From Candidatus Edwardsbacteria bacterium (lineage in GTDB: Bacteria; Edwardsbacteria; AC1; EtOH8): a DNA stretch of 64,000 nt. The notes beneath the pieces were generated by a model that saw nothing but the letters and a program-made list of their open reading frames with translations, was not told where the DNA came from and searched no databases. Each line of letters opens with the position of its first letter. Position 1 is the stretch's first letter. The stretch covers positions 1,910 to 65,909 of the forward strand of contig JAGVNJ010000018.1 in the NCBI GenBank assembly GCA_020053305.1. Direction: 5' to 3'. Below are positions 10,032 to 49,660 of the stretch, piece after piece. The position numbers were made by a program, and so were the translations under genes.

Positions 10032-10068
10032 CCATTACCGGGGGAGAGTTTGTTTGGTTAAAAAATGC

Positions 10069-10097
10069 TTAACTTTTAATCTAAAATCGGTTATAAT
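10069..10097 (+). promoter_or_regulatory. Candidate sigma70-like promoter for the receiver gene
   Basis: TTAACT (10069-10074), a 17-nt spacer, then TATAAT (10092-10097), about 30 nt before the ATG at 10129. Confidence 0.35.
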
Positions 10098-10128
10098 CAC
10101 GGTGTTTTAAGGGAAGGGGCGATAAGCA

Positions 10129-10521
10129 ATGGAAAACAAACCCGGAAGGGTTCATAAGATACTGGTGGCCGACGATGACAGCAATATGCTGTTCATGGTC
10201 TCCGAGATACTGGCCCGTCAGGGCTACGAGGTCTTTCAGGCGGTCAACGGCGACCAGGCGCTTAAGGACGCCGGATCCCTTCGGCCCGACCTGATGGTGC
10301 TGGATATAATGATGCCGGTGGTGGACGGGATCGAGGTCTGCCGCAGGATAAAGGCCGCCCCCGAGACCCGCGATATCAAGGTGATAATGCTTACCGCCAA
10401 GACCGGCGGCAAGGATCTGGAGGCCGGCATGGCCGCCGGGGCCGATCATTACATGACCAAGCCTTTCAAAATCGCCGAGCTGTCGGGAAAGATAGAAGAG
10501 CTGATAGGCACTAACAAATGA
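10129..10521 (+). CDS. Single-domain response regulator receiver (CheY-like)
   Basis: VADDD, LDIMMP..DG and a conserved Lys (MTKPF) are present. There is no output domain. Confidence 0.85.
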   Translation: MENKPGRVHKILVADDDSNMLFMVSEILARQGYEVFQAVNGDQALKDAGSLRPDLMVLDIMMPVVDGIEVCRRIKAAPETRDIKVIMLTAKTGGKDLEAGMAAGADHYMTKPFKIAELSGKIEELIGTNK

Positions 10522-10783
10522 AATTCTAGGCATACGGCAAGGGATATTTGACAGGATTTACAGGATGATCAAGGGTTTGCATAATAAGCAATTTAAAACC
10601 TAGATCCAATAAATCATGTTAATCGTCCGACGCCATAGCTTACCGCCCTGAATACCGGCTATGGCCGACGGCGTCCTGTCCAATTTGATTCCGGCCTGCC
10701 CGCCTCTGGCGGGCTTGCCCGGGTTAGGATAACAGGTTTATTTCGTTCATTAAATCCGCAATATATTTCTTGACAGGAGAAAA

Positions 10784-11884
10784 ATGGAAAGCAAAACGCC
10801 CTTCTATGAGCAGCATGTGGCCGCTGGCGGGAAGATGGTGCCCTTCGCCGGATTTTTAATGCCGGTGCAGTATGCCGGGATCATAGAGGAACACCGGCAT
10901 GTCAGAAGCGCCGTCGGCCTGTTCGATGTCTCCCATATGGGCGAGATCGAGGTTTGGGGCCCGGAGGCCCTGAAATTCGTTTCCTATGTGACCGTCAACG
11001 ACCCGGCCGCCCTGGAGGTTGACCAGGCGCAGTACTCGGCCATGTGCTACCCGGATGCCGGCATCGTGGACGATCTTTTGGTCTACCGCTACCCCGATCA
11101 TTATTTCCTGGTGGTCAACGCCTCCAACTTAGACAAGGATTTCGCCTGGCTCCAGGAGCAGGCCAAAAAATTCGACGTCAGCTTGAAGAACACCAGCGAC
11201 GGCATTGCCCAGCTGGCCCTGCAGGGCCCCAAGGCCGAGTCCCTGCTGCAGAAGATCTGCGACTTAAAACTTTCCGACATGAAATTTTACTGGTTCAAGG
11301 TCGGAAAAGTGGATGGGGTGGATATGCTGGTCTCCCGAACCGGCTACACCGGCGAGGACGGCTTCGAGCTGTATTTCGATAAAAGATACGCCGGGCAGAT
11401 ATGGGAGTCCTTATTCAAGGCTGGCAAAGAATTCGATCTCAAACCCAGCGGCCTGGGCGCCAGGGATTCACTCAGATTGGAAATGAAATACTGCCTGTAT
11501 GGCAACGATATAGATAAAACAACCTCGCCGCTGGAGGCCGGCCTGGGCTGGATCACCAAGCTCAAAAAAGCCGGCGAGTTCAACGGCAGGGATGTCCTTT
11601 TAAAGCAGAAAGCGGATGGTGTAAAGCGGAAACTCATTGGGTTCGAGGTTGAAGGGAACGCCTTTCCCCGCCAGCATTACAAGGTGTTCAAGAACGGCGT
11701 TCAGGTGGGCGAGGTGGCCAGCGGGGTCTTTTCTCCCTCGGTGGCCAAGGGCATCGGCACCGCCTATGTCCCAAGCGAGTTCGCCAAGACCGGCACCGAC
11801 CTACAGGTGGAGATCCGCGGCAGGATGATACCGGCCAGGGTGGCCGAGACCCCGTTTTGGAAGCACAGCTCGATCAAGAAATAA
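10784..11884 (+). CDS. gcvT: Glycine cleavage system T protein (aminomethyltransferase)
   Basis: The N-terminus TPFYEQHVAAGGKMVPFAGFLMPVQY is typical of GcvT. The length is 366 aa and an RBS AGGAGA is present. Confidence 0.9.
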   Translation: MESKTPFYEQHVAAGGKMVPFAGFLMPVQYAGIIEEHRHVRSAVGLFDVSHMGEIEVWGPEALKFVSYVTVNDPAALEVDQAQYSAMCYPDAGIVDDLLVYRYPDHYFLVVNASNLDKDFAWLQEQAKKFDVSLKNTSDGIAQLALQGPKAESLLQKICDLKLSDMKFYWFKVGKVDGVDMLVSRTGYTGEDGFELYFDKRYAGQIWESLFKAGKEFDLKPSGLGARDSLRLEMKYCLYGNDIDKTTSPLEAGLGWITKLKKAGEFNGRDVLLKQKADGVKRKLIGFEVEGNAFPRQHYKVFKNGVQVGEVASGVFSPSVAKGIGTAYVPSEFAKTGTDLQVEIRGRMIPARVAETPFWKHSSIKK

Positions 11885-34841: not shown

Positions 34842-34850
34842 TAATTGCCT

Positions 34851-34876
34851 GAGCCGCTCTTTTAAAGGAGCGGCTC
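34851..34876 (+). terminator. Perfect hairpin downstream of gyrA
   Basis: GAGCCGCTC-TTTTAAAG-GAGCGGCTC followed by A/T-rich sequence. Confidence 0.55.
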
Positions 34877-35020
34877 ATAAATTTTAATGGTCGGTAACTG
34901 TTTAAGCGATGCCGGAATGCACCGGGCCAAGCAACAGGATCGTGCCCAGATCATGTATCAATTATTATTCTGGCAATTACATAGATTAAAATCTTTGCCC
35001 GTTTTTTTGAACGTTCTTGT

Positions 35021-35103
35021 TGTCATGCCCGTGAAACTTGTCCTCGACACAGATCGGGGAACGGGCATCCAGGACTGGATTCCCGCATTCGCGGGAATGA
35101 CAC
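35021..35103. repeat. Hairpin/MITE-like repeat, copy A (TTGTCATGCC...CTGGATTCCCGCATTCGCGGGAATGACA)
   Basis: Terminal inverted segments GTCATGCCCG / CGGGAATGAC are present. The internal palindrome is ATTCCCGC-ATTC-GCGGGAAT. It is related to copy B at 36103-36292. Confidence 0.55.
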
Positions 35104-35152
35104 ATTGAGTAATTTATTTTGCCGAAGCAATAAAAGGATTGGATTAATAATC

Positions 35153-36330: not shown

Positions 36331-38433
36331 ATGTTTCTTTTATTGACATCATCGGCGCATAAAAAGTATAATCCTTTCATGAAAATAATCCTGATAATCC
36401 TCATAACGGCCCTGTCCTTTTGGTCGCTGGCAAGCGAAAAGGAAAGGTTCGGCCATAAGCTGTGGCTGGGCTTTGCCGGAATACGGCTGTTGGTCATCAT
36501 CTTTTTCGCTTTGACCCTATGGGGAATTTCCCTTGACCTTAATATTTTTGCCAGACAACAAAACAGCATAGCCCTGGTAGTCGATGCCAGCCGCAGCATG
36601 ACCCAGCGTGACGGCCGGACGGCCAGTCGTTTTGACCGGGCGATGGACCTCCTGGGCAAAATATCCCCCCGGCAGGATATGAAAAAATATATTTATGACC
36701 AGAACGGCCTGGGGGAGGCCGGGCCTGGCAGGCCGGTTGGGTATTCCGACACCACCGACCTGATAAAGATTATCAAAGCGGCGGTCTCCTTAAAGCCGAA
36801 AGCGGTGGTGCTCTTATCGGACGGAAATCATAATGCGGCGGGAAACCCGGCATCCGAAATAGCCGGCGGGGATGTCCCGATATACGCCATCGGCGTCGGC
36901 CCGGAGGCTGATATTCAATATCCTTCGATATCCCGGATAAATTCACCGGAGGAGATTTCACCGGGGCAAAAAGCCTCAATAGAGCTGCAGCTGGACAATG
37001 TCAAGGACAGGGGAAGGCTGGTCCTGAGCGACGACCGGGGAAGAACCCTGCAGCAGGCGGAATACTCTTCCGGTAAAAGAACAATCGCCCTGGAAGCGAC
37101 CCCTTCTGCTTTGGGGCTCATTCGTTATACGGTGAATATGCTGTCCGGGGGCGATACCATCGACCAAAAGAATGTGGTAATAAACGTAAAAAAAGACCGG
37201 ATCAATGTTCTCTACCTGTCAGGCGATCCGGGGTGGGACCTGCGGTTCATGCACCAGGCGACGGCCAATGCCAAAAACATCGTATTAGATCCCTATCTTT
37301 GGAAGAATAACAACTGGTCAGGCATTGGCAACCAGGAAAAAACCAAACAGGATTTGGGTGATAAGCTAAAAACGGCCGATGTGATAATCCTGCATGATGT
37401 CACGGAAAACATGCTGGACAGAGGCCTGGAGGGCGATATCGCCGCCAGGGTGCAGAACGAAGGGTGCGGACTTTTGATAATGGGCCTGGATTGGCTCTGG
37501 GCGTTCCGCAGCCGTCAGCTGTATGCCATCGCACCCATAATGCCTTCGTCCAACAGCGGGCTCACCGAGGGAACCATCTCGCTGTCAAAATATTTTCTTG
37601 CCTCCGGCATGTTCGATCAGTCCCTGACCGAACAGATCGCTAAACGGATTGTAAAATATCCTCCATTGAACATAAGGGGGAAGGTCAAACAGTTGGCCAC
37701 CGATGCGGTACTGTTTGGAAGCATTGAAAATAAGAAAGAGAACATTCCCTTTTGGGGTCGTCGCTATCTCGGTCGGGGACGCGTAATGCAGATAACGACA
37801 TCATCGCTATGGCCCTGGAAAATGACCGCCCAGGGGATGCTGGAAGACAGCCTGGTCTATTCCGCATTGATCACCGGGAGCTTTCGCTGGCTGGCCGGCA
37901 TGGAGGAACAGAACATAACCCTATCCACCGATCGAAGCTTTTATTATCCCGACGAAAAGATCATTTTCCAGGGAACCAGGCCGGCGGAAAACAGCCGAGA
38001 CCAAGGCATGGAATGGTCGGTTGAGATCAAAGGGAGAAATGGCTTCCGGCAAAAACGGAGAATGTCCCATTGGGGACCGGGGCGCTATATATTCGACGCC
38101 GGGGCCATGCCGCCGGGGGAATACGGTTATGAATCTATCCTTTCCTCTGACGGCAAAAAACTGGCAGATCTCTCCGGCAGGTTCTGGGTGGAGCCATTCC
38201 CTTATCAGGAAAAGGAGCGTTTCCAGAACCGGGAATTGTTAAGTGAGATATCCCGGATCACTCAGGGCAGATATTGGGATATAGATTCTTTGGCCGGCAA
38301 TAATTGGCTGGATCAGGTCAAGCCACAACCAGCGGCAGAAAAGAAAACCCCGATATTCTGGCTGCCCCTGCTGATAATGGCCTTTCTGCTGACCGGGGAA
38401 TGGTATTGGCGGCGTCGCTCCGGCTTGAGCTGA
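36331..38433 (+). CDS. BatA-like membrane protein: N-terminal double-TM, von Willebrand A domain, large extracytoplasmic region, C-terminal TM
   Basis: The VWA MIDAS motif VVDASRSM is present, with two N-terminal TM helices and a C-terminal TM (IFWLPLLIMAFLL). Confidence 0.55.
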   Translation: MFLLLTSSAHKKYNPFMKIILIILITALSFWSLASEKERFGHKLWLGFAGIRLLVIIFFALTLWGISLDLNIFARQQNSIALVVDASRSMTQRDGRTASRFDRAMDLLGKISPRQDMKKYIYDQNGLGEAGPGRPVGYSDTTDLIKIIKAAVSLKPKAVVLLSDGNHNAAGNPASEIAGGDVPIYAIGVGPEADIQYPSISRINSPEEISPGQKASIELQLDNVKDRGRLVLSDDRGRTLQQAEYSSGKRTIALEATPSALGLIRYTVNMLSGGDTIDQKNVVINVKKDRINVLYLSGDPGWDLRFMHQATANAKNIVLDPYLWKNNNWSGIGNQEKTKQDLGDKLKTADVIILHDVTENMLDRGLEGDIAARVQNEGCGLLIMGLDWLWAFRSRQLYAIAPIMPSSNSGLTEGTISLSKYFLASGMFDQSLTEQIAKRIVKYPPLNIRGKVKQLATDAVLFGSIENKKENIPFWGRRYLGRGRVMQITTSSLWPWKMTAQGMLEDSLVYSALITGSFRWLAGMEEQNITLSTDRSFYYPDEKIIFQGTRPAENSRDQGMEWSVEIKGRNGFRQKRRMSHWGPGRYIFDAGAMPPGEYGYESILSSDGKKLADLSGRFWVEPFPYQEKERFQNRELLSEISRITQGRYWDIDSLAGNNWLDQVKPQPAAEKKTPIFWLPLLIMAFLLTGEWYWRRRSGLS

Positions 38434-39121: not shown

Positions 39122-39211
39122 AAAAATGTTGCAAAAGAGCCCGGTTTCTGACATAATTAAAATTCAGACCTGCGGTCAACTTATATCTTACATCATATCA
39201 AGGAACCATCC

Positions 39212-39940
39212 ATGGAATACCGAATGGAGAGATTGAACTGGAAGCAGTTCAAAAAGATCGTTCCGGGGAAGACAGACATCGTCCTGCTGCCGGTGGGGAC
39301 CATCGAGGCCCACGGGCCCGGGGCCCTGGGCACCGATGCCATAATCCCCGGCTACCTGGCCGAGCGGCTTTCCCGGCCGCTTAACGCCATGGTGGCCCCG
39401 GCCATCAACTACGGTGTCACCAATTCCCTGATCGCCTTTCCGGGGTCGCTGACCGTCAGCCCCCCGACCCTTAGGGCTTATGTCAGGGAGACGGCCTTCA
39501 GCCTGGCCGACGCCGGTTTTAAAAAGATCATCGTGCTCAACGGCCACGGCGGGAATATCGACAGCCTGGATGATCTGGGGGCCGGGCTGTGGAAGGAGAA
39601 GAAGGCCGGGTGCCTGGTGATCCACTGGTGGATGGCGGCCGAAGAGGCCTCCGCTAAATATTTCGACGGCTCCGGCCATGCCGGGGCTGACGAGCTGGCG
39701 GCCCTGATGGCCGTCGACCCAACCCTGGTCTCAAAAGCGGACTACCGCCGGGAGGAGGCCGGCCACCGATTCCAGGGCATCAGCATGCATCCCTTCTATA
39801 GGAGCATGATATTGAACCAGCCGGGGAAGGGCTATCCGGTATTCGATACCGGCCGGGCCAGGAAATACATGGAGGCGGTGGTGATGAGATTGACCTTGGA
39901 CATCAAGCAGATATTGGCCGGCTGGGAGAAGATCATCTGA
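39212..39940 (+). CDS. Creatininase-family amidohydrolase
   Basis: The N-terminal LLPVGTIEAHGPGALGTD metal-binding signature is present. The length is 242 aa. Confidence 0.7.
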   Translation: MEYRMERLNWKQFKKIVPGKTDIVLLPVGTIEAHGPGALGTDAIIPGYLAERLSRPLNAMVAPAINYGVTNSLIAFPGSLTVSPPTLRAYVRETAFSLADAGFKKIIVLNGHGGNIDSLDDLGAGLWKEKKAGCLVIHWWMAAEEASAKYFDGSGHAGADELAALMAVDPTLVSKADYRREEAGHRFQGISMHPFYRSMILNQPGKGYPVFDTGRARKYMEAVVMRLTLDIKQILAGWEKII

Positions 39941-42732
39941 TGGATAACGGGAATTTCAAGATATCGGAATTTGAGAAGATCATCAAGACCAGCAGCCGCT
40001 ACATTTCCAGGACCGATGAAACGCTGGGACAGCCGGAACAAGCCCGGGAGAAGATAAGCCTGGTATCCCGGTTCCTCAAAGAGCGAAGGCTGAGCGGCGA
40101 GATCCTTTCGGTGTTCGGGGAGGCCAAGAACCCAGGGCTGGTCTATGTGGAGCTTCCCCAGGGCACCAGGGAGTTTCACGGACAGGCGGCCCAGATGCTG
40201 TTGGAATGCTGCCTTTACGATGCCGACGGACAGCCCAACGAAAGGGCCTGGGACCGGTGGCGCGATTTTGGGAGGAACATCTACTACGGCACGGTGGAGG
40301 AGATCTACCACAATTTCACTTCGGCCCGGCCGGAGCTGGCCCTGATATTCGAGCTGGCCTACCGCCAGTTGATGTCCGAGGCTTCGGTATTATGGTGGGA
40401 ACAGCAGCCGGGAGCGGTAAGAAGCAAGGAGCCCCAGGTGATGCGAAGGTTTAATCTGGAGCTGACCGCCCTGCTTCGCCCCATCAGGGACAAGGTGCTA
40501 CAGAAGCACTCCATCGACACCGAGCTTTTCGAGAAACTGCTGGATCACGGCTGGAACGTAGAATTCGACCTGGAAAGCCCCCAGGCCGTGAATTTTGCCC
40601 CGCTGCTCAGGGAACTGAATCTTTCCCAGGGGATGGTCTCGGAGCTATTCCACCTGCTGTACACCGAGCAACTGAAGGCCAACGAGGAGGCGCTTTGGGA
40701 GAAACTGGGCAGCAGCAGCTTTGCCAAACCCGAAGAGATAACCAGCATGATCTCCGGCAGCCTGTCCCAGATCACCGAGATCGCCGCCCGGGAGATCCAG
40801 AAGGTACTGATCAAGCGGGCCTCCGAGCTGGAGGTCAAGCTCAACCAGGAGCTGGCCGACCTCCAGAAATTCACCAGCCGGGTCAAAAAGCAGACCCAGG
40901 AACTGGTGATGCTGAACAACGGAGATATGTCCAAGGTGGTGGAGGCCAAACTCTATTCCGAGAATCTGCTGAACCTTTCGGCCAAGGTCACCGATTCGCT
41001 GATGCAGTTCCAGAGGAATCTCACCGGCCAGCTGTGGTATCTGCAGGACCTGGAACGCAAGGAGAAAACCCTCCAGACATCCATCGAGAGATGCCAGTCG
41101 CTGCAGCGGATGCCCCTGAAGGACCTGACGGCAATGCTCAGCTCCCACTCCAGAGAGATCAGCACCGATCTCCTGAAGCATCTGGAATTTTTCAACAATC
41201 TTGACCAGTCAATAAAACGCGACTGGGAGGGGCTTACCAAGAACCTGGCCAAGATCCTGGTGGAGATGATCCGGCAGGGGCTGGAGCAGGCCAACATCAA
41301 GGTGAAAACCCTGGACCGGGAGGCGGCCCGGCGCAATCCCAACGATTCTCATGCGGCGGCCGTCCTGATCGAAATGGAGCAGGCCCAGGCCGACGGCCGG
41401 GCCATCTCCGGGCTGATAGAGGAACAGGGAGGGAACCGGGCCTATCATGTGGAGCTGCTGATAGAGAACTACCGGAAATTTCTCACTGAGGTGGCCGAAC
41501 CGATCATGAACTTCCGCCGGCTGGCCTCGCTAGTCAAGCTGTGGCCGCCCCTGATGACGAAGGATCCGCCTGTTTTGAGACAGCAGGAACTATGCGACGA
41601 GGTTTTCTATCTTTCGGAAAGGCTCAAGAGGTATAATCGGTGCTATTCTTTCGTGGCCCAGGGGGCGGTCCTGCCCCAGTCCTCGGCCGTCCTGAAAAAC
41701 GACGGCGAGGTGCGGGAAAAGGTGCACAAGCATTTCTCCCGGGTGATCACGGTAATGGTCTACGACATCCGGGGCTCCAGTTTCATGAGCTCCAAACTTA
41801 TGAACGCCGACAAGGAAAGGGAGATCAAGAACAAGCTGGGCTATATGATCGCCCAAGTCATCAGGCAGCATGGCGGGTTCATCGTCAAGGACACCGGGGA
41901 CGGCGGGCTGGCCTGGTTCGGGGACAACGCCCATGAAACCTACGAAAAATGCTACAAGGAGGTCTTCACCGGCAAGGGCCTCAAGCTGCGGCATTCCATC
42001 AGTTCGGGAACGGAACTGAACATCCTGCCGGCCACCGAGTCCACCAAACAGGCGGTGGACTGCGCCAATGAAATGCTTAGTATGGCTGAGAAGTTCATCC
42101 AGGAGAATTTCAGCAACTACCGGGACTGGTTCCGGGACGCCAAGGAAAGGGAGATTCTCTACGAAGGGATAAACTACGCGGTTTTGCCGCCGGCCTTCAA
42201 GTCGCTGTTCCGGATAGGGGTGGGGATATCCTCCGGCTCCTCCGGCAAAGAGGTCAACCTGTCGCTCAACTCTTTCGGCGATACCGACCTTTGCGGGGCG
42301 GCGGTAAACAATGCCAGCCTGTACGCCGCCGGCAAGGACCCCAGCCGTTCGGTGATACTGCTGGATCACGTTTCTTTCGCCAATATGATGCTCAACACCG
42401 AGAGGTTCACCTCTTTATATCAAGAGCAATTATGGAGGACCAAGGCCACCGGGATTGATGGCTGGGAAAGCAAGCTCCGGGATAGCCTCAAGCTGTGCGA
42501 TTCCGTTGCCGATGACGGCAGTTATTATATTCCCGGCAAGAACTATTCGATAAAGAGAACCGGCTATCAGATTTTGGGGCTGTCGAACACATCCAAGGAG
42601 GCCAGCCTGCGGATGGAGGCCGGAGACAAGGTGGCAGCCATGCAGGATGACGGCCGGTTCATGGATCCCCAGACCAAGACAGAGATAAAATTCGTATACG
42701 AAGTTCAACCCCAGGAGAAGGGGGGTAAGTAA
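39940..42732 (+). CDS. Large soluble protein with a divergent class III nucleotidyl (adenylyl/guanylyl) cyclase catalytic domain
   Basis: MVYDIRGSSF matches FxDIxGFT. VKDTGDGGLAWFG matches KxxGDxxMAxF. FRIGVGISSGSSG matches RIGIHTGxV. GDTDLCGAAVNNASLYAAG matches GDTVNLASRMES. A roughly 570-aa helical N-terminal region is present and no TM helices are seen. Confidence 0.6.
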   Translation: MDNGNFKISEFEKIIKTSSRYISRTDETLGQPEQAREKISLVSRFLKERRLSGEILSVFGEAKNPGLVYVELPQGTREFHGQAAQMLLECCLYDADGQPNERAWDRWRDFGRNIYYGTVEEIYHNFTSARPELALIFELAYRQLMSEASVLWWEQQPGAVRSKEPQVMRRFNLELTALLRPIRDKVLQKHSIDTELFEKLLDHGWNVEFDLESPQAVNFAPLLRELNLSQGMVSELFHLLYTEQLKANEEALWEKLGSSSFAKPEEITSMISGSLSQITEIAAREIQKVLIKRASELEVKLNQELADLQKFTSRVKKQTQELVMLNNGDMSKVVEAKLYSENLLNLSAKVTDSLMQFQRNLTGQLWYLQDLERKEKTLQTSIERCQSLQRMPLKDLTAMLSSHSREISTDLLKHLEFFNNLDQSIKRDWEGLTKNLAKILVEMIRQGLEQANIKVKTLDREAARRNPNDSHAAAVLIEMEQAQADGRAISGLIEEQGGNRAYHVELLIENYRKFLTEVAEPIMNFRRLASLVKLWPPLMTKDPPVLRQQELCDEVFYLSERLKRYNRCYSFVAQGAVLPQSSAVLKNDGEVREKVHKHFSRVITVMVYDIRGSSFMSSKLMNADKEREIKNKLGYMIAQVIRQHGGFIVKDTGDGGLAWFGDNAHETYEKCYKEVFTGKGLKLRHSISSGTELNILPATESTKQAVDCANEMLSMAEKFIQENFSNYRDWFRDAKEREILYEGINYAVLPPAFKSLFRIGVGISSGSSGKEVNLSLNSFGDTDLCGAAVNNASLYAAGKDPSRSVILLDHVSFANMMLNTERFTSLYQEQLWRTKATGIDGWESKLRDSLKLCDSVADDGSYYIPGKNYSIKRTGYQILGLSNTSKEASLRMEAGDKVAAMQDDGRFMDPQTKTEIKFVYEVQPQEKGGK

Positions 42733-42734
42733 TC

Positions 42735-44150
42735 ATGGCGGAGATACTGATCGTTGACCAGGACCGGCTCTTTGCCCTGACCCTGGTCCATGTCCTGAGC
42801 GGCCATCACCACCAATCGGTGCTGGCCTCCGATGAAAAGGAAGTGGTGAGCATCATCCGGGACCGCAACATCGACCTGATCCTGGTGGACGCCGAGCTGG
42901 CCAGCCGGAAAAATCTCCACCTGCTTAAGCATTTGAGGCAGGCCAATCCCGACATCCCGGTGGTGCTTTCGATATCCAAGAAGGTTGATAAGGACGACCG
43001 GGAGCAGCTTCGGAGCGGGCTGTACGATTATATCAACAAGCCGTTCGGACATGAGGAACTGTTGCTGGCGGTGGAACGGGGCCTGGAAAGGCGTCGCCTC
43101 CAGAACGAGAATCGCCTGCTGCTGGGGGACCTCAAGCAGCGGATCAGAGAGTTGTCCACCTTCAACACCATAGCCAAAACCCTCAACTCCACCCTCAATC
43201 TCAAAGAGGTGCTGGACATCGTGATGGGCAAGGTCAAGGAGCTGATCAAAGCCGAGGCCTGGTCCATTTTGATGCTGGATGAGAAGACCAACGAACTGGT
43301 GTTCGAGGTGGCCACCGGGGAGAAGGGGCAGCAGGTCAAGGAGATGAGGCTGGGCATGGGGCAGGGGGTGGCCGGCTGGGTGGCCCAGCACCAGCGGCCG
43401 GTAATCGTGCCGGACACCGCCAATGACCAGCGTTTCTTCAAGGGGCTGGACCAGAAGACCGGGTTCCGCACCAGATCCATCATCGCCACCCCCCTGGTGT
43501 CGCGGGGCCGGCTGATAGGAGTGGTGGAGATAATAAATAAACTGGGCGACGCTTCTTTCGACCAGAAGGACCTGGATCTGCTGCAGACTTTGACCGACCA
43601 TGCCGCCATAGCCATAGAGAACGCCCGGCTGTATGAGAAGGCCCGGAGGCTGGCCGTCACCGACGACCTGACCGGACTGTTCAACTCCCGGCACTGCGAC
43701 ATGTTCCTGAAGAAGGCCCTGGATGAGGCGGTAAAAAAAGACCAGCCGCTGTCCCTGTTATTCATAGATCTGGATCACATGAAAGAGGTGGACGATACCT
43801 ACGGCCATCTGATGGGCGGGCACGCCCTGAAGGAGGTGGCCGACCGGATAGCCGGGGAGGTCAAACCGCCTGATATGGCTTCGCGCTACGGCGGGGATGA
43901 ATACGTGATCGTCCTGCCCGGCAAGAACTCCAGGCAGGCCCTGGAGCTGGCCGAGATTATCAGGAGGAGGATCGAGGCCGAGCCGTTTCTGACCTATCAC
44001 AAACTGTCGTGCCGAATAACTGCCAGCATCGGCATTGCCAATTATCCGGAGCAGGCCGGAAGCACCGACGAGCTGTTCTCCAAGGCCGACCAGGCCATGT
44101 ACCAGGTCAAGGAATCGGGAAAGAACCGGGTCAAATTGTCCGATAAATGA
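42735..44150 (+). CDS. Response regulator with REC-GAF-GGDEF architecture (diguanylate cyclase, GGDEY variant)
   Basis: There is a receiver (LIVDQD...D), a GAF domain, then RYGGDEYVIVLPG. It is separated by 2 nt from the cyclase gene stop. Confidence 0.75.
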   Translation: MAEILIVDQDRLFALTLVHVLSGHHHQSVLASDEKEVVSIIRDRNIDLILVDAELASRKNLHLLKHLRQANPDIPVVLSISKKVDKDDREQLRSGLYDYINKPFGHEELLLAVERGLERRRLQNENRLLLGDLKQRIRELSTFNTIAKTLNSTLNLKEVLDIVMGKVKELIKAEAWSILMLDEKTNELVFEVATGEKGQQVKEMRLGMGQGVAGWVAQHQRPVIVPDTANDQRFFKGLDQKTGFRTRSIIATPLVSRGRLIGVVEIINKLGDASFDQKDLDLLQTLTDHAAIAIENARLYEKARRLAVTDDLTGLFNSRHCDMFLKKALDEAVKKDQPLSLLFIDLDHMKEVDDTYGHLMGGHALKEVADRIAGEVKPPDMASRYGGDEYVIVLPGKNSRQALELAEIIRRRIEAEPFLTYHKLSCRITASIGIANYPEQAGSTDELFSKADQAMYQVKESGKNRVKLSDK

Positions 44151-44168
44151 TCGCAGGAGGATAATACC

Positions 44169-44546
44169 ATGACGCCTTTCTGTCCCGACTGCCGGGCCGA
44201 ATACCGTGAAGGATTCAAGAACTGCTCGGATTGCGGATCCGACCTGTCGGCAGCCCTGCCGCCGGAGGCCGACAACCGGGAGGAGGTCAATTCGGACATG
44301 CTGGCGGTTTATGATGCCCCGGACCAGATGTCAGCCCTGACCCTGTCGTCATTTTTGAATGACAACAATATTCGGACCGTCATCAAATCGGAACAGATCC
44401 CCATGTACGACGGGGTGGCCATGATGCTTTTTCCCCGCTGGGGCCGGGTGATGGTTTTGGAAAACCAATATGAAAAAGCCCGGGCGTTGATAGATGAATA
44501 TCTGTCCGGGGAGACGCTGGCCGAAGATGAATCTCCGCCAGCATAG
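44169..44546 (+). CDS. Zinc-ribbon plus DUF2007-like (PII-fold putative signal transducer) protein
   Basis: CPDC...CSDCG is an N-terminal zinc ribbon. The C-terminus LAVYDAPDQMSALTLSSFLNDNNI...ARALIDEYL resembles DUF2007. Confidence 0.5.
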   Translation: MTPFCPDCRAEYREGFKNCSDCGSDLSAALPPEADNREEVNSDMLAVYDAPDQMSALTLSSFLNDNNIRTVIKSEQIPMYDGVAMMLFPRWGRVMVLENQYEKARALIDEYLSGETLAEDESPPA

Positions 44547-44580
44547 AAAAAAGCCGCAAACCTTAAGTTTGCGGCTTAAA
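44547..44580 (-). terminator. Terminator downstream of tRNA-Leu (minus strand), also usable by the plus-strand gene
   Basis: GCCGCAAAC-CTTAA-GTTTGCGGC has a T6 run on the minus strand. Confidence 0.6.
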
Positions 44581-44593
44581 AATGTCGGTAAAA

Positions 44594-44680
44594 TGGTGCC
44601 GAGGGGGGGAGTCGAACCCCCATGCCCTTGCGAACACTAAGTTCTGAGCCTAGCGCGTCTACCAGTTCCGCCACCTCGGC
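44594..44680 (-). tRNA. tRNA-Leu (anticodon CAG), long variable arm, CCA encoded
   Basis: Hand fold: acceptor GCCGAGG/CCTCGGC, anticodon arm CTAGG-CTCAGAA-CTTAG, a 15-nt variable arm, T-arm GGGGG-TTCGACT-CCCCC. It is 87 nt. Confidence 0.8.
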
Positions 44681-45190: not shown

Positions 45191-46189
45191 TCACCACCAG
45201 ACCGAAAAATAGCGGCAGTGCCGGCAGAGGGATATTTGGTCCCTTTGGCCGGCATTATGTTTTTGCCGCAGGCCGCCCAAAACAGCTCCTTTCCAGATCC
45301 CGGCCAAAGCCTCTGTCCCGGCGTTCCCGATGATTTGCCGGGCCTCGTAATCCAGGCAGCAGGCCGGCACTGTCCCGTCCCAGTAGATGTTCAGTTGGTC
45401 CCAGAGGTACCGGCAGGGCGGCCAAAGCTTCCGTTCCATCAGGTGCGGGCTGTGCTCCCGGTCGGGGAGGGGCACCTGGCCGGCCCAGTCCTGGGCCTGC
45501 CGGAAAATAAGACGGTCGGCCCTGCGCTCCCATAAACGCCGTAGGTTTGATATCTCTTTTTCATTATCGCTAAGGGTAACCACCTGGATAAAGATCTTGG
45601 GCCTGGGTGAAAGCGACAGGATATGGTCTATATTCTCAACCACTTTATGGTAATCAAGTCCGGGGCGCAGCCGGTGGTAGGTTTTCGGAGAAGCTCCATC
45701 CAGGCTGATATGCATCAGGCCCAGCCCGGCCGAGATCAGCCGGACGGCCTTTCCCGGGTAGAGCAGGGAGGCATTGCTGACCAGGCCGATATTCCCAAAG
45801 CCTTTTAACTTTGCCAGGGATATGCGCTCTTCCAGATGGGGGTCCAGCAGTGGCTCCCCGAACCCCGAGAGCAGAAGGCATTCGATGGGCCAATCCTGCA
45901 GCTGCCCCAAAACCCTCTGGTACAACTCCATTGACATCACCCCCTTGTCCCGTTTCATATTCTTGTGCCCGCACATGATGCAGGCCGAATTGCAGGCGTT
46001 GGTGCCTTCGATGGCCACCGTCTTGGGACAGAGCAACCTGCTCTCCTGGACTTTTTTTATACGCCGGGAATAGAGGTGCCGGTACATAGGGTTCCGGCTA
46101 AGCCGGTCCGATGAAACCAAGCGGTAAGCCATGGGCCTTAAGTAAGGCGAGTCTGACAAAAAGTGAAGGGATTTAAAACGTTCCATCAT
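45191..46189 (-). CDS. Radical SAM protein with a C-terminal SPASM/twitch-like Cys-rich domain
   Basis: CNSACIMC (Cx3Cx2C) is present, and the C-terminal region has CC...C..C cysteines. Confidence 0.75.
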   Translation of the reverse strand: MMERFKSLHFLSDSPYLRPMAYRLVSSDRLSRNPMYRHLYSRRIKKVQESRLLCPKTVAIEGTNACNSACIMCGHKNMKRDKGVMSMELYQRVLGQLQDWPIECLLLSGFGEPLLDPHLEERISLAKLKGFGNIGLVSNASLLYPGKAVRLISAGLGLMHISLDGASPKTYHRLRPGLDYHKVVENIDHILSLSPRPKIFIQVVTLSDNEKEISNLRRLWERRADRLIFRQAQDWAGQVPLPDREHSPHLMERKLWPPCRYLWDQLNIYWDGTVPACCLDYEARQIIGNAGTEALAGIWKGAVLGGLRQKHNAGQRDQISLCRHCRYFSVWW

Positions 46190-47300
46190 TCAATATCCGC
46201 AATAATTCTCCCTGTGAATGGAGCCAAAGAAAATATTTTGATGTTATGACACCTTGGGCGGAAATATGCTTTCGGATATTCCTATCATTCACCAAGCGCA
46301 TGATATGCTTGGCCAGTGATCTGCTGTCCCCGGGCCGATAGGTCAGGCAGTTATGCCCCGGGCGTGCATATTCGGAACATCCGCCATTCTCGCTAAGGAT
46401 AACGGCACAGCCGCAGGCCATGGCTTCCAGGGCGGGTAAACCGAAGCCTTCGCTTAAGCTGGTGGATACAAACACATCACTACAGTTATATATTCCAGCC
46501 AGGGCGGTATCATTTCGAGGGCTTTCCAACTGCCATTCCCGGGGGATATCATAACCGATAAGGTTATCCGGGGTTACTATTGTAACCGATAGCTGCTGCC
46601 TTATATTTTCCGGCAGGTGCCTAAAGGCCGTGATCATGGTTTGAAGTCCTTTTATGGGATGAAACCTGGCTAGATAAACCAAATGGACCTTGTCTCCGGG
46701 TGTCTTGTTTTGGCCCGGGGAATGATTAAAAACGCTGGGGTTTACGCCGGGGCGGACCAGCGCCGGAGGAATACAATCCCTTTTGGAATTGAACAGAAAC
46801 CGGCGATAAGTATGACGGGAGTTGAAAATATAGCAGACGTTTGGATATCTATAGCTTAGGAAAGTCAGGATTTTATAAAGGCCATAAAAAAAGTTATTTC
46901 GCAATAGTGCCAAATCGCTGAATATTTGAAAGTCATCCGCCTGAATAAAGTTGTAAACGGGATCCCTGCGAATGAAAAGTAAAAGAGGGCCGAGCATCTG
47001 CCCGGTGGAAATTATATGTTTGAATCTACTAGCAGACAGGTTGATGAAAAAAAACAGCAATAATATATTTATAGCGCGAATGATAAGACCACCTCCGAAA
47101 AGGCCAATGGCCCTGACCTGTACCCCTGGGGCAGTTCTATAATAACATTCACCGGGTCCCCTGGGATACCATATGGCTATGCGGTATTTTTCAATCAAGC
47201 CGTTGGCCAATTCAAAGACAACCCTATTGCCTCCGCCGATCTTGACGGAGGGCAATAAAAACAGAATTGAATTTTGCGGATTTCGTTTCATGACAAACAA
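46173..47300 (-). CDS. Glycosyltransferase family 4 (GT-B, group 1)
   Basis: The C-terminal EGFGLPALEAMACGCAVI nucleotide-sugar-binding motif is present. Confidence 0.8.
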   Translation of the reverse strand: MFVMKRNPQNSILFLLPSVKIGGGNRVVFELANGLIEKYRIAIWYPRGPGECYYRTAPGVQVRAIGLFGGGLIIRAINILLLFFFINLSASRFKHIISTGQMLGPLLLFIRRDPVYNFIQADDFQIFSDLALLRNNFFYGLYKILTFLSYRYPNVCYIFNSRHTYRRFLFNSKRDCIPPALVRPGVNPSVFNHSPGQNKTPGDKVHLVYLARFHPIKGLQTMITAFRHLPENIRQQLSVTIVTPDNLIGYDIPREWQLESPRNDTALAGIYNCSDVFVSTSLSEGFGLPALEAMACGCAVILSENGGCSEYARPGHNCLTYRPGDSRSLAKHIMRLVNDRNIRKHISAQGVITSKYFLWLHSQGELLRILNDGTF

Positions 47301-47309
47301 AATGAAAAA

Positions 47310-48587
47310 TCAAATATTCGGGGCACCATCTTCAGCTGTCAGCCTATCAAGATGAACAGCCAGTTGGCGGGCGATCAGCCGGCGATCATATTTCTGCAAG
47401 GCTTTTGCATCGGGTCGAAAGTCTATCCTATTTGTCTGCCACTGATGAAAAAGCCGCTCGATCAAATCTGCCAACCCCAGATAATCATCTGGCTCTAGTA
47501 CTGTTCCGGTGCTTGTTTCACTGATCAATTGGGCGGCCGGGCTGAAACTCGGGACCGATGCCAGGATCGGCTTTCGCGCTCCCAAATATTCGTAGACCTT
47601 GCTAGTGGAGACGGTCGGGCCCTCTTCCCGTCCTATTGTAAACCATAGGATCGTAGCTTCTTCCAGTATTTCGATCACCCGATTATGAGCCAAATGTCCC
47701 CTAAATTCGAAATAATCAGAGACTCCCAAATGCCGGGCAATCTTCAGATCTTCCGATTTATATACTCCGGCCACAATTATTCTGATGTTTTGAGCCAGGT
47801 GCTGTTTTCTTTTGAGCAATTCACGAAAGGCTCGGGCCAAAACATCTATCCGGCGGTATTTGGTCAAAGAACCGGTGTAGGCTATTGTAAATTTGTCCGA
47901 TCTTGGCCGGGTATTGTTCAAAGGGAAATCCAGGGGATCAAATCCTTGGGGCAGGATGCCGTTAGCCGTGCTTTTTTTTAGGCCGATATTTTGCAGGCCC
48001 TCAAGGATGGGGGCATTGATGGCCGTTATCATATCGGCCTGCTTGACGACCAAGCCCTCAATGTTGCGATTAAGCTGCAACCGGAAAGAAGAATAGCCCC
48101 GGTTAAGGGTATTGGGCTGGGACCAGGCATCCCGAAAGTCACAGATCAGAGGCCGGTCGACCAGGCGTTTGATAAATAGACCGGCCAGATGCGAGGAAAA
48201 AGGCGGAGCGGAAGAGAATATGGCGTCGAAGGGGTTTTGCCGAAAGATTTTCAAGGCGGCCTGAACGGCGAACGGGACCCAGCCGATCTTATTGTCGGGG
48301 ATAAAGAAGTTGTTGATAAAACCGATGAAGCCGCGATGGCGGCTGACCGTCTGGGGATCAAGCCTAGAAAAAGAAAGATGCATGGGGTCCAATGAAGGGG
48401 TGCGGAATACCTGAGATTGCTGCAGATCTTTAGAAAGAGAATCATCATAGCGGTATATGCCCCGGGGATAGGGGGCTATTACAACGGGTTGCCAGTTGTT
48501 GTCGGGCAGATATTTTATGAATTTGACTATCCTGTGAACGCCGCCTTGGGGTGGGTGATAGTAATTGAGTATCAGCAGGCGTTTCAT
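47310..48587 (-). CDS. Glycosyltransferase, GT4-like (GT-B)
   Basis: The start ATG at 48587 overlaps the wecB stop (ATGA). The track ORF has a 56-codon spurious Pro/Gly-rich extension. It has the GT-B two-Rossmann architecture. Confidence 0.65.
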   Translation of the reverse strand: MKRLLILNYYHPPQGGVHRIVKFIKYLPDNNWQPVVIAPYPRGIYRYDDSLSKDLQQSQVFRTPSLDPMHLSFSRLDPQTVSRHRGFIGFINNFFIPDNKIGWVPFAVQAALKIFRQNPFDAIFSSAPPFSSHLAGLFIKRLVDRPLICDFRDAWSQPNTLNRGYSSFRLQLNRNIEGLVVKQADMITAINAPILEGLQNIGLKKSTANGILPQGFDPLDFPLNNTRPRSDKFTIAYTGSLTKYRRIDVLARAFRELLKRKQHLAQNIRIIVAGVYKSEDLKIARHLGVSDYFEFRGHLAHNRVIEILEEATILWFTIGREEGPTVSTSKVYEYLGARKPILASVPSFSPAAQLISETSTGTVLEPDDYLGLADLIERLFHQWQTNRIDFRPDAKALQKYDRRLIARQLAVHLDRLTAEDGAPNI

Positions 48588-49660
48588 CTGCCCAGGTGCC
48601 TTTCCAAGTGTCCCGCTATCAGACGGGCGGACTGTCCCTGGCCGTAAAGGCTGGGGTGAGAGGCTGGCGGTCTCAAATAGGCCAGGGCTTTTAGAATGCG
48701 TTTTTTGTCCGGTCCCACCAGGCGATTCCATCCGGTCTTGACCGTCTCCACCCACTCGGTCTCATGGCGCACCGTCAAACAGGGAGTCTTTAGCAGATAG
48801 GCTTCTTTTTGGATGCCCCCGGAATCGGTGATCACTGCATAGGCTGCCGATTGCAGGGCCAGCGACTCCCGGTATCCCTGGGGAGGTATCAGCATTACGT
48901 TTTCCGATCCTTCCAGCTTATCCCAAAGCGAAATATCCTTCAGCTTCCTCTCGGTGCGGGGATGAACCGGGAAGACTGCCTTTTTCCCGGATGAGAGCAG
49001 GGCCTCCATTATGGCGGATAAATTCTCCGCGTCATCTGTGTTCTCCGCCCGATGGATGGTGACAAACAGATAATTTCCCGGCACCAGTGACAGCTTCTTG
49101 ATTATTTTTGCAGTCTGGTCTTTGGTTGGTAGAATATATTTCATGGCATCGTACATGATGTCGCCCACCATGTAGAGGCCGCTGGTGATCCCCTCTTTTT
49201 TAAGATTCTCCATCGCAGTATTAGTGGAGCAGAAATGCATGTTGGACAGGTGATCGGCCACCACCCGGTTGACCTCCTCCGGCATCATCCGGTTGAAGCT
49301 GCGCATGCCGGCCTCGATATGGGCCAGCGGGATGTGCAGCTTGGCGGCGATCAGCGCCCCGGCCAGTGTGGAGTTGGTGTCGCCGAAGATTATAATGGCA
49401 TCGGGTCTTTGTTTGATGACCACCGGCTCCAGCTTGGCCAGCATGGCGGCGGTTTGGGCTCCGTGCAGGCCGGAACCGACCTCCAGGTTGAAATCGGGTC
49501 GGGGGATACCCAACTCTCTAAAGAACTGCTGGGACATTGCGTAGTCGTAATGCTGTCCGGTGTGCACCAGGATCTCACGGTGTTTTTTTCTGAGGGCCCG
49601 GGAGAGAGGGGCGGCCTTGATGAACTGGGGCCGGGCGCCGATGACGGTCAGAAATTTCAT
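48584..49660 (-). CDS. wecB: UDP-N-acetylglucosamine 2-epimerase (non-hydrolysing)
   Basis: The N-terminus KFLTVIGARPQFIKAAPL...HTGQHYD is characteristic. Confidence 0.9.
   Translation of the reverse strand: MKFLTVIGARPQFIKAAPLSRALRKKHREILVHTGQHYDYAMSQQFFRELGIPRPDFNLEVGSGLHGAQTAAMLAKLEPVVIKQRPDAIIIFGDTNSTLAGALIAAKLHIPLAHIEAGMRSFNRMMPEEVNRVVADHLSNMHFCSTNTAMENLKKEGITSGLYMVGDIMYDAMKYILPTKDQTAKIIKKLSLVPGNYLFVTIHRAENTDDAENLSAIMEALLSSGKKAVFPVHPRTERKLKDISLWDKLEGSENVMLIPPQGYRESLALQSAAYAVITDSGGIQKEAYLLKTPCLTVRHETEWVETVKTGWNRLVGPDKKRILKALAYLRPPASHPSLYGQGQSARLIAGHLERHLGR

Follow-up and report, generated by a model that had tools for sequence, protein, structure and literature searches.

A divergent class III cyclase-like protein encoded beside a GAF-GGDEF diguanylate cyclase in five candidate phyla

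In a 64,000-nucleotide stretch of a Candidatus Edwardsbacteria genome (the window), a gene for a 930-residue protein, here called X930, runs almost directly into a gene for a diguanylate cyclase. An earlier reading of the sequence alone had proposed that X930 is a soluble class III nucleotidyl cyclase and that the GAF domain of its neighbor senses the product, so that a cyclic mononucleotide (cNMP) would be relayed into c-di-GMP from a single operon. Is X930 a cyclase, and do the two genes form a relay?

Gene order in the window

The three open reading frames of the proposed operon lie where that reading had placed them (positions are those of the window, plus strand unless noted). The X930 gene occupies 39940..42732 and ends in TAA; after a 2-nt spacer, the ATG at 42735 opens a 471-aa REC-GAF-GGDEF (GGDEY) diguanylate cyclase gene (42735..44150), identified by ORF and Pfam. 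A 125-aa gene assigned as zinc ribbon plus DUF2007 follows 18 nt past it (44169..44546). Pfam upholds the DUF2007 half of that assignment (PF09413, 37.2 bits against a cutoff of 25.7, E 3e-9), whereas the zinc ribbon is weak and falls below threshold.

Upstream, a creatininase-family gene (39212..39940; PF02633, E 7e-46) shares the sequence TGATG with X930, its stop overlapping the X930 start codon. In the window's clade the operon probably begins with this gene, but the conserved module excludes it: a Usp gene is found instead in locus L004, and elsewhere the gene is absent. The operon may start at a promoter-like site (TTGCAA-17-CATAAT with TG, 39129..39157) within the 90-nt gap downstream of a rhomboid gene, a site found by a consensus scan alone, which says nothing on function. 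Directly 3' of the DUF2007 stop lies a hairpin with a 12-bp stem (44551..44577, assigned to neither strand). With its T-run on the minus strand, the hairpin most likely terminates the convergent tRNA-Leu(CAG) gene (44594-44680, minus strand); possibly it also serves as a bidirectional end of the operon. The surroundings of the module, with gyrB/gyrA, rhomboid, tRNA-Leu and smpB, are conserved housekeeping synteny.

Fold and family of X930

X930 is soluble by prediction, as had been supposed: its highest Kyte-Doolittle 19-residue mean is 1.05, and there is no TM helix. All four cyclase motifs quoted earlier are in its translation (VYDIRGSSF at 607-615, KDTGDGGLAWFG at 650-661, RIGVGISSG at 758-766 and GDTDLCGAAVNNAS at 780-793). 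The earlier cyclase call rested on these motifs alone, because X930 has no Pfam or NCBIfam cyclase match at E<=0.1. Structure and profile comparisons now back it. When the full-length AlphaFold2 model (pLDDT 84.9, pTM 0.74) was compared with the PDB by Foldseek, all 50 of the 50 matches listed were class III cyclase domains, with target TM scores of 0.62-0.71. Those listed include CyaB (3r5g, with the lowest E, 1.3e-7), CyaC, Cya2 and Rv1900c (TM 0.71); the cUMP synthase 7r65 was also among the fold matches. The predicted order of secondary structure elements fits the class III fold, and hhalign aligned the X930-family domain to canonical cyclase-homology domains (CHDs) with 99.25% probability and all motifs in register. 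HMM matches, weak but consistent, were to cyclases, to Rv1900c/CyaB and to PycC (E 1e-4), the PycC matches being limited to residues 603-671, which make up the fold's generic first half. By model and profile, then, the C-terminal part of X930 is a divergent class III CHD.

The family to which X930 belongs, class III cyclase-like proteins invisible to Pfam, is small, with 30 close homologs and just 54 representatives in 1.84e9 proteins; at E<=0.01, PF00211 matched 0 of 40 family representatives. Such a divergent cyclase domain escapes the standard domain databases. Class membership is split here, X930 lying inside class III by fold and outside it by the PF00211 sequence model, and profile-profile comparison alone detects it.

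The N-terminal region (residues 1-490, 39940..41409) is all-helical by predicted secondary structure and contains, in the model, two helices of ~50-55 residues (280-336 and 343-389). The predicted helical stretch ahead of the catalytic domain measures ~490-590 residues. This region had been called novel, and it indeed matched no Pfam or NCBIfam domain and no structure in the PDB by Foldseek (best E 0.16, TM<=0.26). It is conserved in the closer relatives only, distant members having a different N-terminus, and is therefore presumed to be a sensor and/or a dimerization scaffold.

What follows it is kept throughout the family. A pre-catalytic alpha/beta module (residues ~491-600, 41410..41739) carries an invariant LWPP at 534-537, and both it and the catalytic domain are conserved in distant members, whose profile matches begin at ~470-500. 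Foldseek, hhalign and conservation counts support the CHD itself (~601-825, 41740..42414). Two gaps in the hhalign alignment mark insertions within it. The first (~662-698, 41923..42033) forms a beta-hairpin bearing R684 (codon 41989-41991) and is modeled with low confidence over residues 671-690 (pLDDT 54-59). The second (~723-757, 42106..42210) is partly disordered in the model (pLDDT <50 at 736-744) and has conserved Y727, W730, F731 and LPP (749-751). An alpha+beta tail domain, delimited by predicted secondary structure (~826-930, 42415..42729), has no Pfam match and is likewise conserved family-wide, with profile matches of distant members reaching 922-929.

Known class III CHDs (PF00211; CyaB from P. 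aeruginosa, 3r5g; CyaC from S. platensis, 1wc1; Rv1900c, 1ybt) share with X930 the fold and the order of motifs. In register are both metal Asps, the Lys that precedes the second of them by four residues, the Asp of the substrate pair and the start of the G-x-x-V-N helix. Unlike those CHDs, the X930 family has two ~35-residue insertions flanking helix alpha2, a catalytic domain with a conserved pre-domain ahead of it and a C-terminal tail domain behind it, and an alpha4 Arg position that is never Arg and mostly hydrophobic, with an Arg in insertion 1 or earlier on alpha4 instead.

The active site and the partner's GAF domain

Conservation was counted over 156 distinct X930-family domains of 35-93% identity. 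Both metal-binding Asps align to their canonical counterparts and are nearly always kept (D609 in 154/155, D654 in 155/156), as is the adenine-type substrate pair, in register with canonical cyclases (K650 in 155/156, D783 in 156/156). R611, adjoining the first metal Asp, is invariant (155/155), and the signatures YDIRGS and KDTGDGG are nearly so. The ribose Asn is present in X930 as N790 and in just 46 of the 156 domains, the others having R, A, S, D, G or H. At the position of the canonical transition-state Arg, X930 has L794 and no family domain has Arg (0/156; L86 F35 I18 V7 Y4 M3 T2 Q1). The expected alignment of catalytic residues therefore holds for both Asps and, in X930, for the Asn; it fails for the Arg and, in most of the family, for the Asn. 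With the one missing and the other variable, the catalytic core is non-canonical, and the failed alignment that had been named at the outset as a sign of a pseudo-cyclase is partly seen. In canonical class III cyclases, loss of the alpha4 Arg or of the Asn strongly lowers activity.

An Arg is nevertheless always available. R684 is found in 103 of 103 domains without an alpha4 Arg; the alternative alpha4 Arg sits at 790, one helical turn before the canonical position, and neither a single domain (0/156) nor a cluster at 60% identity (0/34) lacks Arg at both sites. With 7 clusters at 50% identity, the independent events in evolution behind this covariation are few. R684 is a candidate for a relocated catalytic or phosphate-binding Arg.

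The downstream protein had been read as REC-GAF-GGDEY, and Pfam finds all three domains: REC (E 1.5e-15; 42744-43073, with D8, D10, D52 and K102 intact), GAF (3e-21; 43194-43622) and a full-length GGDEF (PF00990, 4e-41; 43653-44129), whose RYGGDEY motif ends at 43904. Tyr replaces the Phe of the GGDEF motif in 65 of 67 partners, and the I-site is degenerate (KPPD). The best PDB match of the GAF domain is Lcd1 (5w10; 38% identity over 163 ungapped residues, E 2e-36), from the cAMP-activated GAF-GGDEF protein of Leptospira interrogans reportedly described by Vasconcelos et al. in 2017. CyaB2 (1e-32), PDE2A, PDE10A and PDE5 also match; cNMP-binding GAFs range from E 2e-36 to 1e-18, and GAFs outside that class match at 1e-12 or worse. 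Across 69 partners, the NK..F...D motif and the equivalents of the PDE2A cGMP contacts, on a residue list that we take to be that of Martinez et al. (2002), are 98-100% conserved. The base-discriminating positions (equivalents of PDE2A F438/D439) vary, being A/V and then A/I/S/F/T/L. By sequence, the partner GAF belongs to the cNMP-binding subgroup, which agrees with the receptor type first assigned to it, its nearest solved relative being cAMP-activated Lcd1.

With modest confidence, we lean toward a relay that starts from X930 as a nucleotidyl cyclase of class III type, soluble, dimeric and highly divergent, whose activity would most likely be that of an adenylate cyclase. The long helical N-terminal region of X930 would serve as input and dimerization module, and the hairpin R684 and/or R611 would replace the lost alpha4 Arg in binding the phosphates and the transition state. 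The product, most likely cAMP, would bind the Lcd1-like GAF of the partner, whose translation is coupled to that of X930, and activate c-di-GMP synthesis by the partner's GGDEY domain. A phosphorylation input would come in addition through the intact receiver domain. Signaling would most likely run, on this sequence evidence, from X930 to its partner as a cAMP to c-di-GMP relay.

X930 might instead be a pseudo-cyclase that binds nucleotide and metal and steers the diguanylate cyclase by stoichiometric protein contact, the GAF sensing a cNMP made elsewhere or another ligand. We regard this as unlikely, yet serious enough to weigh. The canonical Arg is missing family-wide, the Asn is variable, one metal Asp is lost in some close homologs (D654N in P0006, D609N in P0008), Pfam does not recognize the domain, and the overlap of start and stop codons suggests that the two proteins are translated together and form a complex. 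A pseudo-enzyme would, however, be expected to drift at the metal Asps and the K/D pair, and these are near-invariant over the 156 sequences, down to 35% identity; together with the retained Arg, they argue against it. An Arg that always occupies one of two alternative sites points to selection on chemistry as well as binding, and a GAF of cNMP-binding type fits a locally produced ligand. As to the Asn, Rv1900c is active without it (PMC4886424).

The product of an active X930 could also be cGMP, a pyrimidine cNMP or a non-canonical nucleotide in place of cAMP, with the GAF tuned to it, a reading that we consider rather improbable. PycC enzymes of Pycsar systems make pyrimidine cNMPs; outside the family, their HMMs match best, and the cUMP synthase 7r65 shares the fold. 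The variable base-discriminating positions of the GAF would also suit such a product, and the changed alpha4 residues could alter the chemistry. Against this, the PycC matches are confined to the partial span given above, and the closest solved GAFs, Lcd1 and CyaB2, bind cAMP. In canonical adenylate cyclases, moreover, the pair equivalent to the invariant K650/D783 selects adenine, Lys/Asp specifying ATP (PMC4886424).

Linkage across genomes and precedents for a relay

Co-conservation of the two genes, proposed at the outset as a check on their pairing, is borne out. A GAF-GGDEF gene lies directly downstream of the X930-family gene, on the same strand, in ~69 of 80 loci from five candidate phyla (Edwardsbacteria, WOR-3, Stahlbacteria, TA06 and Cloacimonadota), usually overlapping it, often by 4 nt, as against the 2-nt gap here. 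The flanking genes differ between loci, with PmbA/TldD, YceG and PRK in place of creatininase, rhomboid and SmpB. Pairing across five phyla points to a hard-wired relay of one second messenger into another.

Could the adjacency be inherited synteny without functional coupling? In the window's clade the entire neighborhood is syntenic, from a 700-aa protein to smpB. Outside it, however, the other neighbors change and the pair stays, and the 10 loci without a GAF-GGDEF neighbor form one separate subclade of the family, so that this reading is largely refuted and we give it very little credence. The third gene is a different matter. An iterative HMM search found the DUF2007 gene in 14 loci (L001-L013, L015), all in the window's clade, and in 0 of the other ~70; because its linkage is confined to that clade, membership in the module is inseparable from local synteny. 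The one-operon module originally proposed thus stands for the cyclase-like gene and its GAF-GGDEF partner, with the DUF2007 gene as a clade-specific neighbor.

A Pycsar-like anti-phage module, in which an effector reads the cyclase's cNMP alarm, is the most improbable reading of all: it would fit the weak, partial PycC matches, the shared fold and the layout of a cyclase next to a cNMP-binding protein, but the second gene encodes a diguanylate cyclase where a TM or TIR effector would be expected, the substrate residues are of adenine type, PADLOC gave no match for the neighbors of X930, there is no defense context, and the module sits in housekeeping synteny and is conserved vertically over whole phyla rather than patchily.

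The cAMP to c-di-GMP relay that we favor is not new as a concept; linkage and GAF subtype support the version first proposed, while its putative cyclase has lost the canonical Arg and has a non-canonical core. Experimental precedents for cNMP to c-di-GMP relays exist. XC_0250/XC_0249 of Xanthomonas campestris are adjacent genes for a class III guanylate cyclase and a cNMP-binding GGDEF enzyme, which together relay cGMP into c-di-GMP (PMC3770947). As at the X930 locus, a class III-type cyclase with an uncharacterized N-terminal region adjoins a diguanylate cyclase with a cNMP sensor. That sensor, however, is a CAP/CRP-type domain for cGMP, whereas the X930 partner has GAF and REC domains and the K/D pair predicts cAMP; the XC_0250 cyclase is canonical and the pair limited to xanthomonads, whereas X930 is non-canonical, spread over five candidate phyla and known from sequence. 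The other precedent is the cAMP-activated Lcd1 (PDB 5W10; PMC8846402, PMC6416229, PMC11800159), which has the GAF-GGDEF core in common with the X930 partner. The partner differs from it in its N-terminal receiver, GGDEY motif, KPPD I-site and linked cyclase-like gene, and the Lcd1 papers covered here describe no comparable cyclase-gene linkage.

A single X930 copy is present in the window's clade, and X930 is therefore presumed to be a homodimer there. In 35 loci from WOR-3, Stahlbacteria and related lineages, two diverged tandem paralogs occur as overlapping ORFs with complementary alpha4 residues, a pattern that suggests the halves of an asymmetric heterodimer and lends dimerization indirect support. 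They may be likened to the C1/C2 pseudo-heterodimer of mammalian adenylate cyclases; unlike C1 and C2, both tandem paralogs keep both metal Asps and the K/D pair.

The cyclase-like gene and its predicted fold

All three ORFs lie on the forward strand where the sequence-only reading had put them: a 930-aa cyclase-like protein (39940-42732), which we call X930, a 471-aa partner (42735-44150) and a 125-aa protein (44169-44546). The X930 stop codon, TAA, ends at 42732 and the next ATG follows after 2 nt, as claimed. The motifs quoted from X930 were all found in its translation, and, in line with its description as soluble, the protein has no TM-compatible hydrophobic segment (maximum 19-residue Kyte-Doolittle mean 1.05). 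Pfam recognized REC (E = 1.5e-15), GAF (3e-21) and GGDEF (4e-41) domains in the second protein and DUF2007 (3e-9) in the third, whose zinc ribbon matched below threshold. Upstream, a creatininase-family gene (39212-39940, plus strand) overlaps the X930 start codon (TGATG). Downstream, a perfect 12-bp hairpin (44551-44577) separates the DUF2007 stop from a convergent tRNA-Leu(CAG) gene (44594-44680, minus strand), with smpB beyond, and we therefore placed the end of the unit at 44546. The hairpin has a T-run on its minus strand alone, so it is probably the terminator of the tRNA gene; it may also close the plus-strand operon.

Pfam and NCBIfam searches with X930 gave no cyclase match at E<=0.1, and PDB searches with phmmer and a family profile returned cyclases only at E ~0.04, over residues 601-691. 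A full-length AlphaFold2 model (23 homologs in the alignment) was confident, with a pLDDT of 84.9 and a pTM of 0.74. The best 50 Foldseek matches of this model in the PDB were all class III catalytic domains, with CyaB (3r5g, E = 1.3e-7), CyaC, Cya2 and Rv1900c (TM 0.71) among the top names. When the family domain (40 sequences) was compared with canonical cyclase domains by hhalign, the probability was 99.25% and every motif was in register. X930 is a class III cyclase as judged by modeled structure and profile-profile comparison, not by the standard libraries.

In the hhalign register, the metal-binding Asps of X930 are D609 and D654. The Lys/Asp pair to which canonical adenylate cyclases owe their ATP specificity (PMC4886424) corresponds to K650, which precedes D654 by four residues, and D783. 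Helix alpha4 opens with G786-x-x-V789-N790, placing N790 at the canonical Asn, and L794 occupies the position of the transition-state Arg. The alignment of catalytic residues on which the sequence-only reading had staked its assignment thus held in X930 for the Asps and the Asn and failed for the Arg. Two family-specific insertions of ~35 residues each flank helix alpha2: the first (~662-698) is a beta-hairpin modeled with low confidence (pLDDT 54-59), and the second (~723-757) is disordered in part in the AlphaFold2 model.

The family and its active site

An exhaustive hmmsearch of 1.84 billion representative proteins yielded only 54 matches at E<=1e-3, 42 of them at E<=1e-30. PF00211 recognizes none of 40 family representatives; it does recognize the five weakest matches, which are canonical cyclases. 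About ten representatives match X930 over its full length. The others share profile positions ~480-930, in which the cyclase domain is preceded by a pre-catalytic alpha/beta module containing an invariant LWPP and followed by a C-terminal alpha+beta tail; their N-termini differ from that of X930 and are likewise unannotated. The modules before and after the cyclase domain (X930 residues 491-600, at 41410-41739, and 826-930, at 42415-42729) have no Pfam match; all parts of the family conserve them, and they may have a regulatory role or bind the partner. Among 185,579 species genomes scanned, 149 loci turned up, every one in a metagenome-assembled genome (MAG), from Candidatus Edwardsbacteria/UBP2, TA06, WOR-3, Stahlbacteria and Cloacimonadota. 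The closest relative of the window, L006, is 88% identical.

We assessed conservation in 156 distinct domains with 35–93% identity to that of the window. D609 is present in 154/155, D654 and K650 each in 155/156, D783 in 156/156, and R611, within the motif YDIRGS, in 155/155. Position 794 is never Arg (0/156), and position 790 is Asn in 46 domains, Arg in 53 and Ala, Ser, Asp, Gly or His in 57. To judge from these sequences, the active site of the family is non-canonical, yet its metal- and base-binding part is under very strong constraint. Two close homologs each have one metal Asp substituted: P0006 (69% identical) carries D654N, along with an Arg at the canonical position in the motif VDNARR, and P0008 (60% identical) carries D609N. 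These proteins may be inactive variants, or the metal site may tolerate change.

Canonical class III enzymes carry Asn at position i and Arg at i+4 on alpha4. The 53 domains with R790 have the motif V-R-E-A-N, in which an Arg at i is followed by an Asn at i+3, both facing the side of the helix that holds the canonical pair. All 103 domains without Arg at 790 have R684, in insertion 1; R684 is missing from 43 of the 53 R790 domains, mostly because the hairpin itself is missing. Neither any of the 156 domains nor any of 34 clusters at 60% identity lacks both residues. Clustering at 50% identity leaves 7 clusters only, so few independent events lie behind the pattern, which is suggestive of a family that needs one Arg, taken from either the 684 or the 790 site.

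In 35 loci (WOR-3, Stahlbacteria and L016), two diverged cyclase-like genes with overlapping ORFs stand in tandem, as at L048:6717-9134 and 9131-11398 (the others are L016, L018, L019, L021, L027, L031-L034, L039-L041, L050, L052, L053, L058, L061-L067, L069-L074, L077, L080 and L083-L085). The upstream copy, A (812-877 aa), has the motif VRE[AS]N and usually lacks insertion 1. The B copy (755-771 aa) follows, with [AS]DA[NH] and R684, and is itself followed by the GAF-GGDEY gene. Every B-type copy in our sample has an A-type copy upstream. By analogy with mammalian C1/C2, this arrangement suggests that A and B pair into an asymmetric dimer, an obligate heterodimer in WOR-3 and Stahlbacteria; unlike in C1/C2, both copies keep both Asps and the Lys/Asp pair. 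Genes of the window type (N790, R684) occur singly, no further copy being present in the 64 kb, and their product presumably forms a homodimer.

The partner gene and its GAF domain

We searched 85 loci with the window proteins by tblastn. In ~69/80 genome loci, a GAF + GGDEF gene comes directly after the cyclase-like gene and in the same orientation. In the two loci checked (L022 and L048), it is a separate gene, with a 4-nt overlap between its start and the stop of the gene before it. Within the clade of the window, the flanking genes encode creatininase, rhomboid and smpB products; outside it they encode PmbA/TldD, PRK and YceG. Since all other neighbors differ outside the clade, lineage synteny does not explain the pairing, and the co-conservation on which the sequence-only reading depended holds. 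Ten partnerless loci (L016, L030, L036, L038, L046, L049, L051, L060, L079 and L082) form one separate subclade of 854-870 aa proteins with the signature KETGDGG...IDIYG...INEAK, and no GAF-GGDEF gene was found within 6 kb of their cyclase-like genes. In L030, the upstream genes encode aspartate carbamoyltransferase and a dihydroorotase-like amidohydrolase. The third gene fared differently. It is present as claimed, and an iteratively built HMM placed a zinc-ribbon/DUF2007 gene behind the partner in 14 loci, all from the window's clade, whereas the other ~70 have none, so that its link to the module is inseparable from local synteny.

Partners have either a REC-GAF-GGDEF or a GAF-GAF-GGDEF architecture. 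The receiver phospho-acceptor Asp is retained in 33/52, and the window receiver is intact (D8, D10, D52, K102). The catalytic motif is RYGGDEY, not GGDEF or GGEEF, in 65/67 partners (43890-43904 in the window). The I-site RxxD is intact in ~40/69 and degenerate (KPPD) in the window protein.

The best PDB match of the window GAF (E = 2e-36, 38% identity over 163 ungapped residues) is 5w10, the GAF of Lcd1, a Leptospira GAF-GGDEF diguanylate cyclase in which cAMP binding to the GAF gates the GGDEF (PMC11800159, PMC8846402, PMC6416229). CyaB2 (1e-32), a GAF-HD-GYP protein and then PDE2A, PDE10A and PDE5 (1e-22 to 1e-18) follow, and GAFs for other ligands score 1e-12 or worse. We take the cGMP-contact residues of PDE2A GAF-B, reportedly listed by Martinez et al. 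2002, to be S424, F438/D439, I458/A459, D485, T488, T492 and E512, and verified the numbering offset against our GAF alignment. Across 69 distinct partners, the equivalents of S424, I458/A459, D485, T488, T492 and E512, as well as NK..F...D, are 98–100% conserved. At the base-discriminating F438/D439, the partners have Ala or Val and then a residue that varies, a pattern shared with CyaB2 and Lcd1, which bind cAMP. Between phyla, the partner GAF (46% identity between window and WOR-3) is better conserved than the cyclase-like proteins overall.

A putative relay and its surroundings

The best-supported model, towards which we lean, is a relay in which a signal would act, by way of the N-terminal helices, on a class III cyclase that would be dimeric and non-canonical, with R684 and R611 as candidate functional residues. 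Its product, predicted from the Lys/Asp pair to be cAMP, would be bound by the Lcd1-like GAF of the co-translated partner, turning on the synthesis of c-di-GMP; phosphorylation of the receiver domain would serve as a further input. The main rival, which we consider rather unlikely, is that X930 is a pseudo-cyclase controlling the diguanylate cyclase by contact: the canonical Arg is missing, the Asn is variable and P0006 and P0008 have each lost a metal Asp, set beside the near-invariant Asps and Lys/Asp pair of the family at large. A product other than cAMP seems improbable given that pair and the Lcd1-like GAF. The changed flanks and the separate subclade of partnerless loci effectively exclude mere synteny as the cause of the pairing. 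A Pycsar-type defence role for the module is effectively excluded as well.

Beyond the cAMP relay itself, we tentatively propose a new class III-derived cyclase lineage with a rebuilt active site, its Arg coming from the lineage-specific hairpin or from a shifted alpha4 site in a dedicated A/B heterodimer. Bound permanently to a cNMP-gated diguanylate cyclase, it would act in Edwardsbacteria, WOR-3, Stahlbacteria, TA06 and Cloacimonadota as a self-contained second-messenger converter, turning a signal into cAMP or another cNMP, perhaps a non-canonical product, and this in turn into c-di-GMP.

To our knowledge, experiments on cyclic-mononucleotide to c-di-GMP relays come only from xanthomonads, and on the receptor half alone from Leptospira Lcd1. 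In Xanthomonas, the class III guanylate cyclase XC_0250 and the adjacent XC_0249, a CAP-type cNMP domain joined to a GGDEF, make up a pathway that leads from cGMP to c-di-GMP (PMC3770947). The relay concept is the same, and so already known; there the ligand is cGMP and the sensor CAP-type, whereas here the sensor is GAF-type and the predicted ligand cAMP. Our literature searches turned up no account of the X930 family, nor of an operon of this kind in the phyla concerned. What is new is a lineage of cyclases that Pfam and NCBIfam miss, whose Arg/Asn half-site is rebuilt and whose helical N-terminal region is novel, together with a putative GAF-type relay hard-wired across five candidate phyla and its tandem-paralog variant. 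If X930 is active, cAMP-type signaling exists in several uncultivated phyla, where it is unannotated because the enzyme escapes both libraries. In that case the relay would also be the most widely conserved hard-wired one of its kind so far. As a natural experiment, the family also shows how plastic an active site can be: it has three different replacements for the canonical Arg/Asn pair, one of which, the tandem paralogs, resembles an independent origin of a C1/C2-type asymmetric dimer.

Several neighboring features were also seen. In two relatives (L001:2821-3513 and L002:968-1654), a stand-alone GGDEF gene (228-230 aa) is flanked by gyrA and a small PAS-domain gene. The corresponding place in the window (34842-35104) holds only an unrelated 73-aa ORF, so this diguanylate cyclase gene is missing from the window's genome. 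Upstream of X930, a 700-aa protein (36331-38433) with an N-terminal hydrophobic segment has only sub-threshold VWA matches; no Pfam family could be assigned to it in the window or in relatives, and it is conserved upstream, with the rhomboid gene, throughout the window's clade. Beyond the module, a convergent cluster on the minus strand (45191-49660) encodes a radical SAM/SPASM protein, glycosyltransferase-like ORFs and a UDP-GlcNAc 2-epimerase-like gene and, by analogy with locus L004, may be a polysaccharide or glycan-modification locus beside the c-di-GMP module.
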